Shown piece by piece: positions 1 to 4,776 of a stretch of DNA of 4,776 nt. How positions within the stretch are numbered: the stretch's first letter is position 1; every line of letters begins with the position of its first letter. The stretch lies in IMG/VR virus record IMGVR_UViG_2617271086_000001, positions 1 to 4,776 of that record, one strand, 5' to 3'. This stretch comes from a virus. Taxonomy: Duplodnaviria > Heunggongvirae > Uroviricota > Caudoviricetes. Under the pieces are notes generated by a model. It was given only the letters and a program-made list of their open reading frames with translations, did no database searches and was not told where the DNA came from. Position numbers and translations under genes: made by a program.

Positions 1-426
1 GCAAACCTTACCGTTGCTACGTCAGAACAATGGCGTGATAAGCAAACTGGAGAGCAAAAGGAGCAGACGGAGTGGCACCGTGTGGTAATGAGCGGGAAAC
101 TGGCAGAAATTGCCAGCGAATATCTGCGAAAAGGCTCTGAGGTTTATCTTGAAGGCAAATTGCGGACAAGAAAATGGCAGGATCAAAGCGGACAGGATCG
201 GTTCACTACCGAAGTCATCGTGGGCGTTGGTGGAACCATGCAAATGCTTGGTGGCAAGCAAGGAGGCAATGAACAGTCTTCACCTCAGCGAAATAACGGT
301 CAGCAACAAAGACAGCAACCTCAGCAGCAAGGGAATCACAGCGAACCACCTATGGATTTTGACGACGATATCCCCTTTGCACCAGTAACTCTCCCCTTCC
401 CTCGTCACGCTATTCACGCAATTTAA
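1..426 (+). CDS. ssb: Single-stranded DNA-binding protein, 5'-truncated by the window edge (frame 1 is open from base 1)
   Basis: Translation from base 1 gives ...[68 protein letters not shown]..., closely matching the OB-fold core of E. coli SSB as recalled from memory; Gly/Gln-rich linker; [11 protein letters not shown] acidic tip motif (nt 346-378) followed by an unusual 15-codon extension before TAA at 424-426. Confidence 0.9.
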
Positions 427-434
427 GGACTTAC

Positions 435-983
435 ATGAATCACTTAATGGTTGACCTTGAAACAATGGGCAACGGGCCATACGCGCCAGTTATTTCTATT
501 GGGGCGGTATTCTTTGACCCGAATACCGGAGAAACAGGAGAAGAGTTCTCGGTAAATATCTCGCTTGAGTCATCAATGCGATATCGGGCGCGTCCTGACG
601 CTTCAACGATTTTATGGTGGCTGGAACAGAGTGAAGAAGCCAGAAAATCGCTAACCAGCAACACTCAGGAGCTTTCAACGGCTCTTTCATGGTTATCTGA
701 ATTCATCATAAAGAACGCTAACCACAAATTCGTTCAGGTTTGGGGGAATGGAGCATCATTTGACTGCGTTATTCTCCGCAACAGTTATTCGCTGACAGGA
801 CAGCCAGTTCCGTGGCAGTGGTGGAATGACCGCGACGTAAGAACAATCGTCGAGCTTGGAAAGGTAATAGGATTTGACCCTAAGCGAGATATGCCATTCA
901 AAGGAACTCGCCACAACGCGCTTGATGATGCCATCCACCAAGCCAAATACGTTTCAGCAATCTGGAAAAAATTAGCTAAATAA
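435..983 (+). CDS. DnaQ-like DEDDh 3'-5' exonuclease (RNase T/epsilon-like fold)
   Basis: 182-aa ORF with AAGGA Shine-Dalgarno 5 nt upstream of ATG 435; Exo I-like MVDLETMG, Exo II-like WGNGASFDC, Exo III-like HNALDDAIHQAKY motifs; start 9 nt after the ssb stop. Confidence 0.75.
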   Translation: MNHLMVDLETMGNGPYAPVISIGAVFFDPNTGETGEEFSVNISLESSMRYRARPDASTILWWLEQSEEARKSLTSNTQELSTALSWLSEFIIKNANHKFVQVWGNGASFDCVILRNSYSLTGQPVPWQWWNDRDVRTIVELGKVIGFDPKRDMPFKGTRHNALDDAIHQAKYVSAIWKKLAK

Positions 984-999
984 TCAACAGGAGAAAAAC

Positions 1000-1296
1000 A
1001 TGCCAGCGCCTCTGTATGGTGCGGATGACCCGCGCCGCTGTTCCGGCAATTCCGTATCGGAGGTGCTGGATAAATTCAGAAAAAACTACGACCTGATAAT
1101 GTCGCTACCGCAGGAAACGAAAGAGGAAAAGGAATTTCGCCACTGTATATGGCTTGCAGAGAAAGAAGAACGCGAGCGAATTTACCAGACATCAATCCGA
1201 CCATTCCGCAAAGCCACATATACCCACTCCCCTGAATATATCGACCCGCGCCTGCGTAATTACCGCTCACGCTATGGCGCTATCAGTAATGACTGA
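1000..1296 (+). CDS. Phage early protein, hypothetical; possibly Abc2-like anti-RecBCD protein (recollection only, unverified)
   Basis: 98-aa ORF with AGGAG SD about 8 nt upstream of ATG 1000; charged, Arg/Lys-rich; the N-terminus [14 protein letters not shown] resembles my memory of P22 Abc2-family proteins; it sits directly downstream of the ssb/exonuclease genes. Confidence 0.5.
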
Positions 1297-1306
1297 GGAA
1301 TTTACC

Positions 1307-1471
1307 ATGAGAGGACTTGCATACAATCCCGGCATTCTTCCGGCAGAAATGATTATTCGCCAACGCGTAAAGCCAATGCCATCGAGAGAGGAATTGCTTA
1401 AGAGAAATTCTTTTCCATCAGTGAATCAAAACAAATATCTGAATGCGATGTTGCGGAGTGGGAAGAAATGA
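1307..1471 (+). CDS. Hypothetical small phage protein (54 aa)
   Basis: ATG 1307 preceded by GAGG (1295-1298) at 8 nt spacing; stop overlaps the next start in an ATGA junction (1468-1471). The track's longer 1154 start would overlap the preceding gene and lacks an SD. Confidence 0.45.
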
Positions 1472-1881
1472 AACAAATGTCACTAATTGAGATGGATGGA
1501 TTTCTTAAAGGTAAATGCATCCCAAGTGATTTAAAGGTTAACGAAACAAACGCTGAATATCTGGTGCGTAAATTTGCTGAAGCGGAGGCCAAGTGCGCGG
1601 CGCTGGCAGCGGAGAATGCGGCGCTTAAACAGTCGGAGAAGGAATTTAATAACTTCTGTCGTCAGGAGTACTACGGTTGGGAGGACAACTTCACGGAAAC
1701 CCCAGCCACCGATGCTTTCCTGGCTGAAGTACGGGCGCAGGGCGTGGATATGGCTCGTAACGCGATGATTGATTTTGTTGATGGTGAAGTTGGGCCAAAC
1801 AAGAACGTTCCGGGGCTGATTAGAGGCGCAGAGATATGCGTAAGTATTGCTGAACAGCTTCGCAAAGGAGGCAACCAGTGA
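1468..1881 (+). CDS. Coiled-coil phage accessory protein, possibly Ead/Ea22-like
   Basis: 137-aa ORF; Ala/Glu-rich heptad-like segment [23 protein letters not shown]; ATGA overlap with the upstream gene and GTGA overlap with the downstream gene. Confidence 0.55.
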
Positions 1882-2177
1882 CTGTATGTCTTATTGATAA
1901 ACGTCGACGTGGGCAACAAATACCATCTGTTGAAATGCCGAATCACACATGGTTTTGCGTACTTGATATCGATGGTATGGATGCGTTGGTTGACACTCGT
2001 CATTACTGCGATACCGCAACAGCTACTCCGGCGAAAGCAAAGAAAATGGCTGCTCTGATAGAAAACTGGACTCCACCTGATGGTTGGTGCAATGGGAATG
2101 ATCGAGATTGGCATGAAAAAATGAAGGGCTATATCTGCGATTTCTTACGTAAATGCAACGGATTCAGGGTGATGTGA
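1878..2177 (+). CDS. Hypothetical phage protein (99 aa, Cys/Trp/His-rich)
   Basis: GTG start at 1878 preceded by AGGAGG (1866-1871) at 6 nt spacing; GTGA overlap with the upstream stop; no recognisable family. Confidence 0.5.
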   Translation: MTVCLIDKRRRGQQIPSVEMPNHTWFCVLDIDGMDALVDTRHYCDTATATPAKAKKMAALIENWTPPDGWCNGNDRDWHEKMKGYICDFLRKCNGFRVM

Positions 2178-2178
2178 C

Positions 2179-2586
2179 ATGAACAAGATTGACTATCAGG
2201 CACTGCGTGAAGCGGCAGAGAAAGCCGGTGAAGATAAGTGGCAGGCTAAAAAAATAAATGGTGATTTTTTTGTTATTCGTCACGGTAGTTATACAAGACA
2301 GCATGGCTACACATCGTATCAACCCATTGCGGAGATTGATTGTAAGCCAGTCCGGGATTTTGTTGCCAAGGCTAATCCGGCTACCGTACTGGAATTACTG
2401 GATGAACTGGAAGCAGCAAAAAAGCGCATTGCAGAACTGGAAGCGCGGGAAATATCGCTCCCGGAACGTAGCAGCATGCTTCATCGAACAGATTTTCACG
2501 ATGATTACCAAACGGTAATGGCATACAAAGTTTCTGAAGTCATCGCTGCAATCCGCGCCGCAGGCATTCGCATCAAAGGAGAGTGA
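2179..2586 (+). CDS. Ead/Ea22-like family protein
   Basis: 135-aa ORF; N-terminal MNKIDYQALREAAEKAGEDKW and central LLDELEAAKKRIAELEAR coiled-coil are characteristic of lambdoid Ea22/Ead proteins as I recall them; starts 1 nt after the upstream stop. Confidence 0.6.
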   Translation: MNKIDYQALREAAEKAGEDKWQAKKINGDFFVIRHGSYTRQHGYTSYQPIAEIDCKPVRDFVAKANPATVLELLDELEAAKKRIAELEAREISLPERSSMLHRTDFHDDYQTVMAYKVSEVIAAIRAAGIRIKGE

Positions 2587-2587
2587 G

Positions 2588-2779
2588 ATGGACGGACAAA
2601 TATCAATCGTTCGACCAGGAGCATGTGACGATCGCGAAATACGAATAATTATTCGTCTGGCAATGTGGAAAGCAATAACTGCTCTCATTACCCCAGAAAA
2701 TCTCGCATTAGCATTAACAGGAAAGTCAGACCTGCCAGTAGAGCTAAAGCTGCGAAATGTTGAGATTAAGGTGAAATAG
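2588..2779 (+). CDS. Hypothetical small phage protein (63 aa)
   Basis: ATG 2588 with AAGGAG (2576-2581) at 6 nt spacing; 1 nt gap after the previous stop; no recognisable family. Confidence 0.45.
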   Translation: MDGQISIVRPGACDDREIRIIIRLAMWKAITALITPENLALALTGKSDLPVELKLRNVEIKVK

Positions 2780-2781
2780 CT

Positions 2782-3585
2782 ATGACCACTATTACCAAAG
2801 AACGTATCGAATTATTCATTAAAAATCCGCTTGAAAACGGGCTTACTCGTGGCGAACAAATGGAACTGGCACGAATTGCACTGGCATCACTGGAACGCGA
2901 ACAGATTCGCCACGAGCATGCCAAATGGTCTGACTCCACATTTGGCTGCGTTGGCCCCATTGGTCCACTGAAACACCTCTCAAAAGAGGCACTGGAAGCC
3001 GCAGCCGAACCAGACGATCTTAGCGAGTGGGCTGATATGCAGTTTCTGTTGTGGGATGCACAGCGCCGTGCTGGCATCAGCGATGCTGAAATTACCGCTG
3101 CTATGGAAGATAAATTGAAGATCAACATGGAGCGCCAGTGGCCTGAACCAAAAGATGGTGAGCCTCGCTTGCACATTAAAGAACCCGGCAACTCTCCGGT
3201 AATTCCGGATGGTTTATCCACGGTATGCGCTGAGGCTTATCAGGTTGTAGGAGTTATGGCAGATGCGCTTGGTGTATTCGGTGATGCAGCAGTACAGAAA
3301 GTTCTGGATAACCTGTCACAGCAAAAACTTGTTCACAGAGATGTGCTGCCGTTCTCGCTTCCGGTGACTCCGGATGGTTGGATAAGCTGTAGTGAGCGAA
3401 TGCCGGATAGCAAAACAGCCGTTCTTGTTGCCAGGGAGTTTGACAGGAAAGGTTACTGGCGAATGAAATGGGCGACTTACATCCCTGGGCATCCTGACGC
3501 TAATGATGGGTGGATAATTCCTGGTGCGTCGTGGAAACCGTCACACTGGATGCCGCTACCAGAGCCGCCGCAGGAGGCGAAATGA
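2782..3585 (+). CDS. MazG-like dATP/dGTP pyrophosphohydrolase domain (DUF550) fused to a C-terminal DUF551 domain
   Basis: 267-aa ORF; N-terminal all-alpha region with acidic clusters (ELARIALASLEREQIRHEH; EALEAAAEPDDLSEWADMQFLLWDAQ; MEDKLKINMERQWPEP) resembling MazG-type NTP pyrophosphatases; C-terminal DGWISCSERMPD...HWMPLPEPP matches the DUF551 signature as recalled; AAGGTGA SD at 7 nt spacing. Confidence 0.7.
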   Translation: MTTITKERIELFIKNPLENGLTRGEQMELARIALASLEREQIRHEHAKWSDSTFGCVGPIGPLKHLSKEALEAAAEPDDLSEWADMQFLLWDAQRRAGISDAEITAAMEDKLKINMERQWPEPKDGEPRLHIKEPGNSPVIPDGLSTVCAEAYQVVGVMADALGVFGDAAVQKVLDNLSQQKLVHRDVLPFSLPVTPDGWISCSERMPDSKTAVLVAREFDRKGYWRMKWATYIPGHPDANDGWIIPGASWKPSHWMPLPEPPQEAK

Positions 3586-3863
3586 TGGACTCCTTCGCAA
3601 AATATACAATTATTGACTGGATGGCCTTCCTTCAGGTTTTGCTCATCTGGTTTTATATGGCTTACAGGAGTGGGCAGTGGATTGTCAGTGTAGCCTGTAG
3701 CAAGGGATGGCGTTGGTGGAACCGAAAGAATAAAAAAGCACTGGCATTGGATTCGTTTTACGAAGCATTCAATCTTAACAGCCTTCAGCCTGGTTCTGTC
3801 ATTGTAGTCACCACTCAAAGCGGCATGACCATTCAGATTCATAAACCAAAAGAGGAAAAATGA
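3582..3863 (+). CDS. Small membrane protein (about 93 aa, one predicted N-terminal transmembrane helix)
   Basis: AGGAGG (3572-3577) upstream of tandem ATGs at 3582 and 3585; ATGA overlap with the DUF550/551 stop; hydrophobic segment YTIIDWMAFLQVLLIWFYMAY followed by a basic stretch WRWWNRKNKK (positive-inside topology). Confidence 0.55.
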   Translation: MMDSFAKYTIIDWMAFLQVLLIWFYMAYRSGQWIVSVACSKGWRWWNRKNKKALALDSFYEAFNLNSLQPGSVIVVTTQSGMTIQIHKPKEEK

Positions 3864-3949
3864 TGTGGCCTATATGTGTTAATTGCGGACGGATGTGCCT
3901 ATCTGGATGGTGCCGAAAGTGCGACAAATGCACGAAGAAAAGACAATAA
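3860..3949 (+). CDS. Cys-rich micropeptide (29 aa, MMWPICVNCGRMCLSGWCRKCDKCTKKRQ), putative zinc-ribbon-like
   Basis: Absent from the ORF track (too short). Tandem ATGs at 3860 and 3863 overlap the upstream stop (TGA 3861-3863); AGAGG at 3851-3855; six Cys including a CxxC pair and a C-x2-C-x2-C run; followed by a terminator-like hairpin. Confidence 0.35.
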   Translation: MMWPICVNCGRMCLSGWCRKCDKCTKKRQ

Positions 3950-3953
3950 CAAT

Positions 3954-3980
3954 CCTCGCACTCGCGGGGATTTCTTTTAT
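3954..3980 (+). terminator. Putative intrinsic terminator
   Basis: Stem CCTCGC (3954-3959), loop ACTC, stem GCGGGG (3964-3969) with one G-U wobble, then T-rich tract ATTTCTTTTAT; lies right after the micropeptide stop in the only sizeable intergenic gap. Confidence 0.35.
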
Positions 3981-4017
3981 CTGAACTCGCTACGGCGGTT
4001 TTTTATGGAGATGATAA

Positions 4018-4185
4018 ATGCACTTCCGAGTCACAGGTGAATGGAATGGAGAGCCATTCGACAGAGTTATCGAAGCAGAGGACATCAATGACTGCTATAA
4101 CCACTGGATGATATGGGCGCAGATAGCACATGCAGAAGTAACCAATATTCGAATTGAAGAACTGAAAGAACACCAAGCCGCCTGA
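4018..4185 (+). CDS. Hypothetical small protein (55 aa), moron-like
   Basis: ATG 4018 with GGAG (4007-4010) at 7 nt spacing; translation MHFRVTGEWNGEPFDRVIEAEDINDCYNHWMIWAQIAHAEVTNIRIEELKEHQAA; absent from the ORF track; bracketed by two terminator-like hairpins. Confidence 0.5.
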   Translation: MHFRVTGEWNGEPFDRVIEAEDINDCYNHWMIWAQIAHAEVTNIRIEELKEHQAA

Positions 4186-4200
4186 TGGCGGTTTCTTTTT
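4175..4200 (+). terminator. Putative intrinsic terminator
   Basis: GC stem CCGCC (4178-4182) / GGCGG (4187-4191), loop TGAT, extended by flanking A-T and G-U pairs, followed by TTTCTTTTT; overlaps the stop codon of the 55-aa ORF. Confidence 0.5.
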
Positions 4201-4215
4201 GCCTGGAGAATTAAG

Positions 4216-4407
4216 ATGACCGATACCAGCCTGATTCCTGAGAAAGAAGTGATGAACAAGCTCGGTGTTTCATCACGTCAGACAATCTGGAACTATACCA
4301 AACGGCACGGATTTCCAAAGCCAGTCAGAACCCACCCCAAATCATACCTTCGTGAAGCTGTTGAGGGGTGGATTCTTAACGGTGGCGTTAATCAGAAATG
4401 CTCCTGA
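4216..4407 (+). CDS. xis: AlpA/Xis-family excisionase / phage transcriptional regulator (helix-turn-helix)
   Basis: 63-aa ORF with GGAG (4204-4207) at 8 nt spacing; EKEVMNKLGVSSRQTIWNYTKRHGFPKPVRTHPKSYLREAVEGWI fits the AlpA/excisionase HTH pattern (ligand-free small DNA binder, conserved FPKP and W); adjacent to the integrase. Confidence 0.8.
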   Translation: MTDTSLIPEKEVMNKLGVSSRQTIWNYTKRHGFPKPVRTHPKSYLREAVEGWILNGGVNQKCS

Positions 4408-4776
4408 TGTGCCAGAACAATTTATCAGCGTGAAGCTCATACGCTTTGCGCTGAGCCTCTATCCAGTCGTGTTTATTGTATACGGACATTATCCCGCCAA
4501 GTTCATGACCGAGCATTCGCTCAGTAACATGAGGCTCGACATTCATCTCGGACAGACGTGTAACAAGCGTTCTTCTGAAATCGTGTGTTCGCCAGTAACC
4601 GAGATCCATCCCTCCCCTTATTCTATTTACGAATCGGTTGGCTGCAGCGATGCTGATCGGTTTGTTTATGTCTTCTCCAGGGAAAAGAACATCATTGTAC
4701 GTTGTCATGGCCTTTTCGAGGAAAGGCTTAATTTGTTCGAAGATTGGACGGCGGATAACATTACCCATCTTGCTAT
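4388..4776 (-). CDS. int: Tyrosine recombinase (phage integrase), C-terminal catalytic region; 5' part lies beyond the window
   Basis: Minus-strand frame open to the window edge; HDFRRT (His-x-x-Arg box), MLGHE and VYNKHDW (catalytic Tyr region) motifs; stop at 4388-4390 (TAA on the minus strand). Confidence 0.9.
   Translation of the reverse strand, partial: SKMGNVIRRPIFEQIKPFLEKAMTTYNDVLFPGEDINKPISIAAANRFVNRIRGGMDLGYWRTHDFRRTLVTRLSEMNVEPHVTERMLGHELGGIMSVYNKHDWIEAQRKAYELHADKLFWHIRSISD

Follow-up and report, generated by a model that had tools for sequence, protein, structure and literature searches.

The eight-gene block between positions 1307 and 3949 of the virus record IMGVR_UViG_2617271086_000001 is read here as the hypervariable accessory segment of the early-left (pL) operon in a P22-like prophage of the HK620/Sf6 type that lies beside sbcB; the segment goes by the name 'ea' in P22 and 'hka' in HK620. 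We regard its genes as independent cassettes rather than as one system, with a probability of about 0.85. The window, meaning the whole stretch of 4,776 nucleotides (nt) that was analysed, is the entire contig CBWG010000058.1 of Escherichia coli IS25. A sequence-only reading of it had taken the tight coupling of the eight genes to mark neighbours as partners or regulators and the block as one candidate system; this was not borne out, as the gene order is not conserved and the genes have many alternative neighbours. The region, its gene families, their mosaicism and one of the junction motifs have already been described for HK620 and Sf6-type phages.

The same reading had described eight genes, and a script check of starts, stops and junctions found the genes, all on the plus strand, and all seven junctions exact, base for base. 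They are listed with Pfam E-values, Shine-Dalgarno (SD) pairing energies and ratios of nonsynonymous to synonymous polymorphism (pN/pS); lengths are in amino acids (aa).

1307-1471, + strand: g1, 54-aa DUF2737 protein of the HK620 hkaI type; ATG start; PF10930, 3.4e-32; pN/pS 0.32
1468-1881, + strand: g2, 137-aa protein of the hkaH / HK97 gp37 type; ATG start; phrog_614, no Pfam family
1878-2177, + strand: g3, 99-aa DUF7739 protein; GTG start overlapping the g2 stop; PF24881, 5.5e-21; SD -11.6 kcal/mol; pN/pS 0.34
2179-2586, + strand: g4, 135-aa Ead/Ea22-like protein; PF13935, 6.7e-18
2588-2779, + strand: g5, 63-aa protein of the hkaF type; phrog_1222; pN/pS 0.29
2782-3585, + strand: g6, 267-aa modular protein of the 'EaA' type; PF04447, 5.4e-42, and PF04448, 4.9e-21
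3582-3863, + strand: g7, 93-aa DUF4752 protein (92 aa from 3585); PF15944, 1.9e-36; pN/pS 0.12
3860-3949, + strand: g8, candidate open reading frame (ORF) of 29 aa with six cysteines (MMWPICVNCGRMCLSGWCRKCDKCTKKRQ); ATGA overlap with g7; SD -6.0 kcal/mol; no family

From g1 to g8 the junctions measure -4 (ATGA), -4 (GTGA), +1, +1, +2, -4 and -4 nt, and stop and start overlap or stand no more than 2 nt apart at all seven. An alternative start of g7, a second ATG at 3585 that is used by one public gene call, would give a 1-nt overlap.

Conserved gene order in relatives, which the sequence-only reading had itself named as a test, was not found. Searches with the block alone covered 5426 complete E. 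coli genomes and 50,697 phage records. Pieces of the block are present in 3090 of these genomes and in 445 phage records, mostly at 90-99% identity; at least 80% of it in one place was found in none of the 3346 matching E. coli records and in none of the 445 phage records, the largest share being 77% in E. coli and 53% in phages (Kapi1). Gene order was then compared among 90 regions, consisting of the window and 89 loci anchored on abc2, in which ORFs were tiled and their products clustered at 70% identity. A scan of the genome contigs with abc2 gave just six loci. These regions hold 84 gene orders and more than 270 families, and the order g1-g8 occurs in none of the 89 other loci. The gene g2 is followed by 17 right-neighbour families, g5 has 12 left- and nine right-neighbour families, with the same +1 and +2 junctions kept, and g7 has 10 left-neighbour families. 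The block is one combination drawn from a large pool of cassettes and is not inherited together as a system.

The depth to which the window's DNA is matched in 88 of the loci gives the same picture of conserved flanks around a variable middle. The 5' flank from abc2 to g1 is matched in 77-86 of the 88 loci (g1, which forms the 5' anchor jointly with abc2, in 77-85) and the 3' flank from the terminator to g9 in 44-64, while most of the stretch from g2 to g8 is matched in only 1-21; the exceptions are the 5' end of g2 and the start of DUF551. Depth breakpoints fall at gene junctions and also within g2, g4 and g6. Within g2 the depth drops from 60 to 3 loci, and this protein is internally mosaic, its N-terminal module (residues 3-51) and C-terminal module (residues 28-137) matching different PHROGs.

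When junction flanks were aligned across loci having differing neighbours, the junctions were found to lie in conserved sequences. Before g5, 11 different upstream gene families finish in the near-identical run GCATCAAAGGAGAGTGAGATG, although one of them diverges over much of it, and most of these families consequently share the C-terminal peptide ...GIRIKGE. After g5, AAGGTGAAATAGCTATGACCACTATTACCAAAGA opens genes that diverge beyond it, and the flanks of g5 are constant, with the same +1 and +2 junction sequences throughout. Similarly, GGCAACCAGTGAG follows g2 and opens many unrelated GTG-started genes, the g2/g3 junction GGCAACCAGTGA (1870-1881) recurs ahead of many unrelated genes, GGGTGATGTGACATGAnCAAGATTGACTATCAGGCACTGCGTGA follows g3, and ...CCGCAGGAGGTGAAGTGATG stands ahead of g7. 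The g3/g4 junction (2180-2210) is identical at 30 of 31 positions to a sequence annotated as 'bsq3; boundary sequence' in the Sf6 genome record. This bsq3 sequence was found in 47 of the 89 loci, with 34 gene families before it and 24 opened by it; the pre-g5 motif occurs in 29 of the 89 (18 and 11 families) and the DUF551-start motif, spread over 37 families, in 58. Both ends of g4 are such boundary sequences, with bsq3 at its start (2180-2210) and the pre-g5 sequence at its finish (2563-2590). Each junction motif holds the SD, stop and start together with the first or last codons.

For lambdoid mosaicism, it is an established proposal that short conserved boundary sequences serve as substrates of homologous recombination (as cited in PMC3029335), and the boundary sequences shared here fit cassette exchange by this route. 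They would be the substrates on which cassettes are shuffled, possibly with the phage's own recombination functions, encoded just upstream, as the catalyst. The linkers would allow cassettes to be swapped frame-neutrally, which may explain the persistence of the -4, +1 and +2 junctions regardless of the genes on either side. We thus infer that the tight junctions, going with conserved boundary sequences, report how the array is assembled and packed rather than partnership between its genes. As part of portable boundary sequences, they are unusable in this case for inferring that neighbours are functional partners.

The tightness of the packing is also less exceptional than it appears. Overlaps of the ATGA or GTGA kind and spacers of 1-2 nt are the default packing in temperate phage operons. 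In the whole HK620 genome, 23 of the 51 same-strand junctions (45%) measure -4, -1, 0, +1 or +2 nt, with a longest run of four, and these tight junctions include those of nin, lysis and virion genes. In the abc2-to-xis region of 83 other architectures, counted with a crude and deliberately unbiased ORF tiler, tight junctions make up 52%, and 17 architectures have runs of at least five, four of them runs of seven. Seven tight junctions in a row would be expected at about 0.4-1% if junctions were independent draws. Thus, the run in the block lies at the upper end of, yet inside, what the region does; it is beyond chance in a generic comparison and barely so against its own kind.

Among the block proteins, g6 is modular. 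Residues 1 to about 45 are a shared N-terminal leader and residues 42-137 a DUF550 / dATP-dGTP pyrophosphohydrolase domain, after which come a linker and DUF551 (199-264). The DUF550 match is nearly complete (PF04447, 142.4 bits against a cut-off of 23, profile positions 1-96 of 97), and an acidic ExxE...ExxD pattern could be read from the sequence (E69, E72, E82 and D85). This motif and the helical secondary structure are consistent with a MazG-like all-alpha fold, and g6 is a predicted pyrophosphohydrolase. Sequence searches of the PDB with g6 alone and with its profile gave chance-level matches only (E of 0.3 or more). An AlphaFold2 model, built on a 29-sequence alignment that was too shallow (homologues 78-87% identical), was too poor for a fold search, with a mean predicted local distance difference test score (pLDDT) of 37.8 and a predicted template modelling score (pTM) of 0.29. 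No homologues of purZ, datZ or dpoZ were found in the window or in the annotated relatives examined.

The DUF551 allele of the window, at 93-96% identity, also forms the C-terminal end of five other host-protein families, HK620 hkaE among them, and some DUF551-terminated protein is present in about 60 of the 89 loci. In an alignment of 29 close g6 homologues, residues 1-208 are almost invariant. The DUF551 core that follows (residues ~209-254, ~3406-3545) exists in at least 10 unalignable variants with indels, and is bracketed by the invariant ends LPVTPDGWISCSERMP and HWMPLPEPPQE (3361-3404 and 3544-3576), giving a domain span of 3361-3576, or residues ~194-265. The occurrence of one allele on five other families, together with the variable core, therefore indicates that DUF551 behaves as a swappable C-terminal module. 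It is the sole feature here that might repay experimental attention. For the mining of prophages for counter-defence or host-takeover genes, the useful unit would be a single cassette or a domain such as DUF551, not the eight-gene block, and the anchors abc2-DUF2737 and terminator-g9 offer a simple handle for harvesting a very large pool of alternative cassettes. A more ambitious version of this idea, which we consider speculative, is that the array is a recombination-driven arsenal of independent early effectors, with the junctions as a cassette-exchange system and DUF551 (on at least 37 families) as a swappable target-recognition module that would aim N-terminal effectors, in g6 the MazZ-like dATP/dGTP pyrophosphohydrolase, at variable host or defence targets.

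With regard to expression, the sequence-only reading had proposed a single co-translated unit. One polycistronic, potentially coupled unit is indeed plausible, given that the genes share one strand, have overlapping or abutting stop and start codons, and show neither a promoter nor a convincing terminator among them; the unit is larger than the eight genes, as it would be the distal part of a pL operon that also holds ssb, exo and abc2. Sigma-70-like promoters were not found anywhere in the window on either strand, against 6.0 +/- 2.4 in dinucleotide shuffles. The hairpin noted earlier after the last gene was confirmed as a terminator-like structure (3951-3972; stem of 9 bp, -14 kcal/mol, z = -3.6, with a U-run after it). 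No convincing terminator was found inside the block, those identified standing after g8 and after g9, and there is none between abc2 and g1. Two candidates were rejected: a 5-bp hairpin at 3195-3209 inside g6 is weak and was judged not significant (z = -1.2), and 1400-1412 in g1, although identical to the core of the HK620-annotated terminator tL3 (AAGAGAAATTCTT), is AT-rich and folds no better than shuffles (z = -0.9).

The best reading of these signals is one polycistronic unit that would be continuous with the recombination genes. In HK620, the counterpart of the block (hkaJ-hkaE) is annotated with pL, nutL, N, cIII, kil and the recombination genes all upstream of it, which makes the block the distal accessory part of the early-left operon. 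By analogy, we infer that it would be transcribed from pL with N antitermination, as the tail of the transcript made after infection or induction. Translational coupling of the block genes through their overlaps is plausible, and these overlaps may provide compaction plus some termination-reinitiation coupling. Each protein would probably work on its own early in infection, affecting host or competitor functions; candidate effectors are the Ead/Ea22-type protein, as a possible modulator of the lysis-lysogeny decision, and the MazZ-like dATP/dGTP pyrophosphohydrolase fused to DUF551. The depletion of promoter matches over 1-4776 would also be in keeping with spurious promoters being avoided in a long early operon.

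Several points weigh against independent cassettes of a pL operon and need to be set beside the evidence above. ORFs in the 89 loci were called crudely, clustering at 70% identity yields an inflated family count, and the locus sample is anchored on nearly identical abc2 genes. As for expression, each gene could initiate independently from an SD of its own, and any dependence on upstream translation may be partial; pL, nutL and N lie outside the 4.8-kb window, and transcription from pL is argued from relatives only (L001 and L003). Four further points concern associations between particular genes, some of which are non-random in this sample. As judged from the 89 loci, g2 precedes g3 in 9 of 12 cases. 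A gene with the Ead/Ea22 opening motif follows g3 in six of seven distinct downstream sequences, as it also does in Sf6, L090 and L091, and a gene starting with MTTITKE follows g5 in 9 of 10 full-length distinct downstream sequences and in most loci. Finally, overexpression of neighbouring genes of the CPS-53 cryptic prophage, yfdQ and yfdR together with yfdS or yfdT, has a joint effect on DnaA (PMC4776307).

The associations after g3 and g5, together with the occurrence of g8 after g7 in five loci besides the window, raise the question of whether the array holds genuine two-gene modules, namely g3-g4 (DUF7739 and Ead/Ea22-like), g5-g6 (the latter leader-bearing) and g7-g8 (a membrane protein and a Cys-rich peptide). 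We consider this rather unlikely. What is shared after g3 and g5 is a short boundary sequence or leader of 30-110 nt, whereas the bodies of the partner genes differ, with eight families after g3 and nine after g5. Ead-like genes, leader-bearing genes and g7 are all found without the proposed partner; in HK620, for example, hkaH is directly followed by hkaG, and in four architectures g7 is followed by a different family (F4). Moreover, tight physical linkage alone would give such associations.

The eight genes could alternatively form one multi-component system, such as a counter-defence or host-takeover machine, in which translational coupling would set the stoichiometry and the neighbours of an effector would be its partners or regulators. 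The seven consecutive tight junctions are at the top of the range in relatives and exceed any run in HK620, the joint action of the CPS-53 genes is a precedent, and the identical eight-gene arrangement is present in three assemblies. These three copies nonetheless represent one prophage lineage, as their DNA is near-identical and occupies the same chromosomal site. The block is kept as a unit in none of the 5426 E. coli genomes and none of the 50,697 phage records, there are 84 orders in 90 regions, HK620 has tight junctions just as often between genes of unrelated function, and the block proteins have no PADLOC or NCBIfam matches. The synteny test has largely refuted the one-system reading, and we regard it as very improbable.

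Least probable of all is that the block is not an early lytic segment but a lysogenic-conversion ('moron') cassette, expressed while the prophage is repressed and benefiting the host. In its favour, high expression in lysogens is known for some prophage accessory loci (PMC7067206), and deletion of yfdS, which encodes a DUF551 protein of CPS-53, alters host stress tolerance (PMC4776307). Against it, the window has no promoter-like site, the block shares its orientation and tight spacing with the upstream recombination genes without a terminator between abc2 and g1, and Kapi1_002, 009 and 014 (hypothetical genes of the related phage Kapi1 with low locus numbers that were not mapped onto this region) are without detectable expression in the lysogen (PMC12922286).

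Several results bear on whether the eight genes are real. Gene predictions made independently for this contig and for two more assemblies place g1-g7 at the same coordinates, except that g1 is uncalled in one of the three. All eight starts show SD-like pairing to the 3' end of 16S ribosomal RNA (-4.2 to -11.6 kcal/mol), compared with a background mean of -2.7 kcal/mol, where just 25% of positions reach -4 or better. With homologous DNA from related loci, pN/pS is 0.12-0.34 for g1, g3, g4, g5 and g7, which therefore look like real proteins; g2 and g6 are without usable comparison sequences, and variation in g8 is too low to judge. All eight exact protein sequences are already present in public collections. 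PHROGs matched every block protein but g8, each matched family being of unknown function, and the Pfam and PHROG assignments are concordant. NCBIfam gave no match for the eight proteins, and PADLOC none for g1-g9, its one result being a weak mad1 match for the AlpA-like protein. A search of Rfam over the whole window at E up to 1 found nothing. Long antisense ORFs on the minus strand at 1671-2114, 2766-3221 and 3477-3842 were set aside, having no Pfam family.

Two of the smaller genes deserve comment. The product of g7 is probably a small membrane protein, judging from a hydrophobic N-terminal segment at residues ~9-28. The candidate g8 is the weak member of the block and is uncalled in the source assemblies. 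Phage HK106 (YP_007151700) and three metagenome-assembled Caudoviricetes records have an annotated protein of exactly this sequence, and the copies that follow g7 in other loci are 97-100% identical. An alternative-frame ORF at 3876-4040 has no Pfam family and runs through the conserved terminator; g8 was preferred.

The window as a whole runs from a partial ssb through a 3'-5' exonuclease, abc2, the eight-gene block and the 55-aa g9 to an AlpA-type excisionase and a convergent tyrosine integrase, and the identical arrangement adjoins sbcB in two further assemblies. The block thus lies between the recombination module (ssb, exonuclease and abc2), whose strand it shares, and the excisionase/integrase, as it does in annotated relatives. 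The flanking features are as follows.

1-426, + strand: ssb (partial); Pfam SSB, 2e-25
435-983, + strand: Rv2179c-like 3'-5' exonuclease; Pfam Rv2179c-like, 2.9e-73
1000-1296, + strand: abc2, anti-RecBCD, 5' anchor of the variable region; Pfam Anti-RecBCD_p2, 6.9e-62; DNA matched in 86 of 88 loci
3951-4194, + strand: 3' anchor, made up of the terminator-like hairpin at 3951-3972, g9 at 4018-4185 (55 aa, phrog_676) and a second terminator-like hairpin at 4175-4194; DNA matched in 44-64 of 88 loci
4216-4407, + strand: AlpA-type excisionase/regulator
4388 to the end, - strand: 3' part of the convergent tyrosine integrase, with sbcB next in complete relatives

The gaps between ssb and exo, exo and abc2, and abc2 and g1 are just 8, 16 and 10 nt, all on the same strand, so the upstream limit of the block is arbitrary. 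The exonuclease (435-983) is itself a variable cassette, its DNA being matched in 10-11 of the 88 abc2-anchored loci, and other relatives have an endonuclease or nothing in its position. An extra gene of about 96-107 aa with an ATGA junction stands between abc2 and DUF2737 in 19 loci (including L005, L007, L009 and L013), so even the conserved anchor is split in some phages; Sf6 gene 24 (L092, 3694-3984) is this extra gene, which the Sf6 record describes as similar to P2 Orf83. At the other end, the excisionase-like gene (+) and the convergent integrase (-) overlap by 20 nt at their 3' ends (4388-4407), and the annotations of the relatives L001, L002 and L091 show this overlap too. It is also worth noting that 559 of the 7109 block-matching places in the E. 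coli collection are on plasmids, and therefore cassettes of the ea type circulate beyond chromosomal prophages too.

The best DNA matches of the window are P22-like (Lederbergvirus) phages HK620, Sf6, Kapi1, N7 and IME10, thousands of E. coli prophages and many Shiga toxin (Stx) phages. Homologues of named ea/hka genes are present (hkaI, hkaH, hkaG, hkaF, hkaE and Sf6 gene 22), as are the Pfam families Ead_Ea22, DUF2737 and DUF551. The hka genes of HK620 (hkaI-hkaE) and genes 19-24 of Sf6 occupy the same position as the block, after abc2 and before xis/int, with the same strand and junction pattern, the hka junctions being -4, -4, +1 and +2. In the naming of HK620, hkaJ is abc2, hkaI is g1 (DUF2737), hkaH is similar to g2, and hkaG is Ead/Ea22-like, as is g4; hkaF is g5, at 98% aa identity, and hkaE shares the leader of g6 and a 94%-identical DUF551. 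In Sf6, gene 22 resembles g3. Both bsq3, annotated in Sf6, and the tL3 motif of HK620 also occur in this prophage. Compared with HK620, it adds DUF7739, the DUF550-DUF551 fusion, DUF4752 and the 29-aa ORF, and is without eaG/hkaD and Lar. The integration modules differ as well: an AlpA-type excisionase with a convergent integrase beside sbcB is present here, whereas HK620 has a TorI-type Xis/IntS module, as does Sf6. Early-left operons of P22-like phages are mosaic and mostly of unknown function (PMC2629481, PMC8022706). An experimental-evolution paper on Sf6 was considered as evidence that the region is dispensable; its deletions are in the nin region, and it was not used.

By position, another counterpart is the exo-xis region of lambda and Stx phages (ea22, ea8.5 and orf60a/61/63/73), which has an analogous place between the recombination genes and xis. 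This region is early-expressed and non-essential, and includes an Ea22-family gene (PMC7093339, PMC10834534, PMC3824215). Parts of the block match DNA of Stx and lambda-type phages, although what is shared with the lambda exo-xis region is limited to the N-terminal and coiled-coil part of Ead/Ea22 and to DUF551; the other lambda exo-xis genes are absent here. Ead/Ea22 proteins of lambda and Stx phages favour lysogeny (PMC7093339, PMC10834534). The effects on lysis and lysogeny were shown in lambda and Phi24B. Ea22 proteins are themselves mosaics, with a common N-terminus and coiled coil followed by variable C-terminal domains, and DUF551 is a portable domain (PMC10834534).

For g6, the nearest characterized counterpart is the DUF550 enzyme of the Z-genome Acinetobacter phage SH-Ab 15497, which converts dATP and dGTP to dAMP and dGMP (PMC12884076). 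The match to the whole PF04447 profile is shared with MazZ-type enzymes of this kind, whereas in g6 the domain is fused to an ea-type leader and to DUF551. At the level of the whole region, phage accessory regions have been described as hotspots in which highly variable, non-core genes cluster with conserved genes on either side, the abc1/abc2 neighbourhood of P22 being one example (Silas et al., bioRxiv 10.1101/2023.04.06.535777; PMC12373910). The likeness of the window to these regions is one of layout, with conserved flanks enclosing a variable middle.

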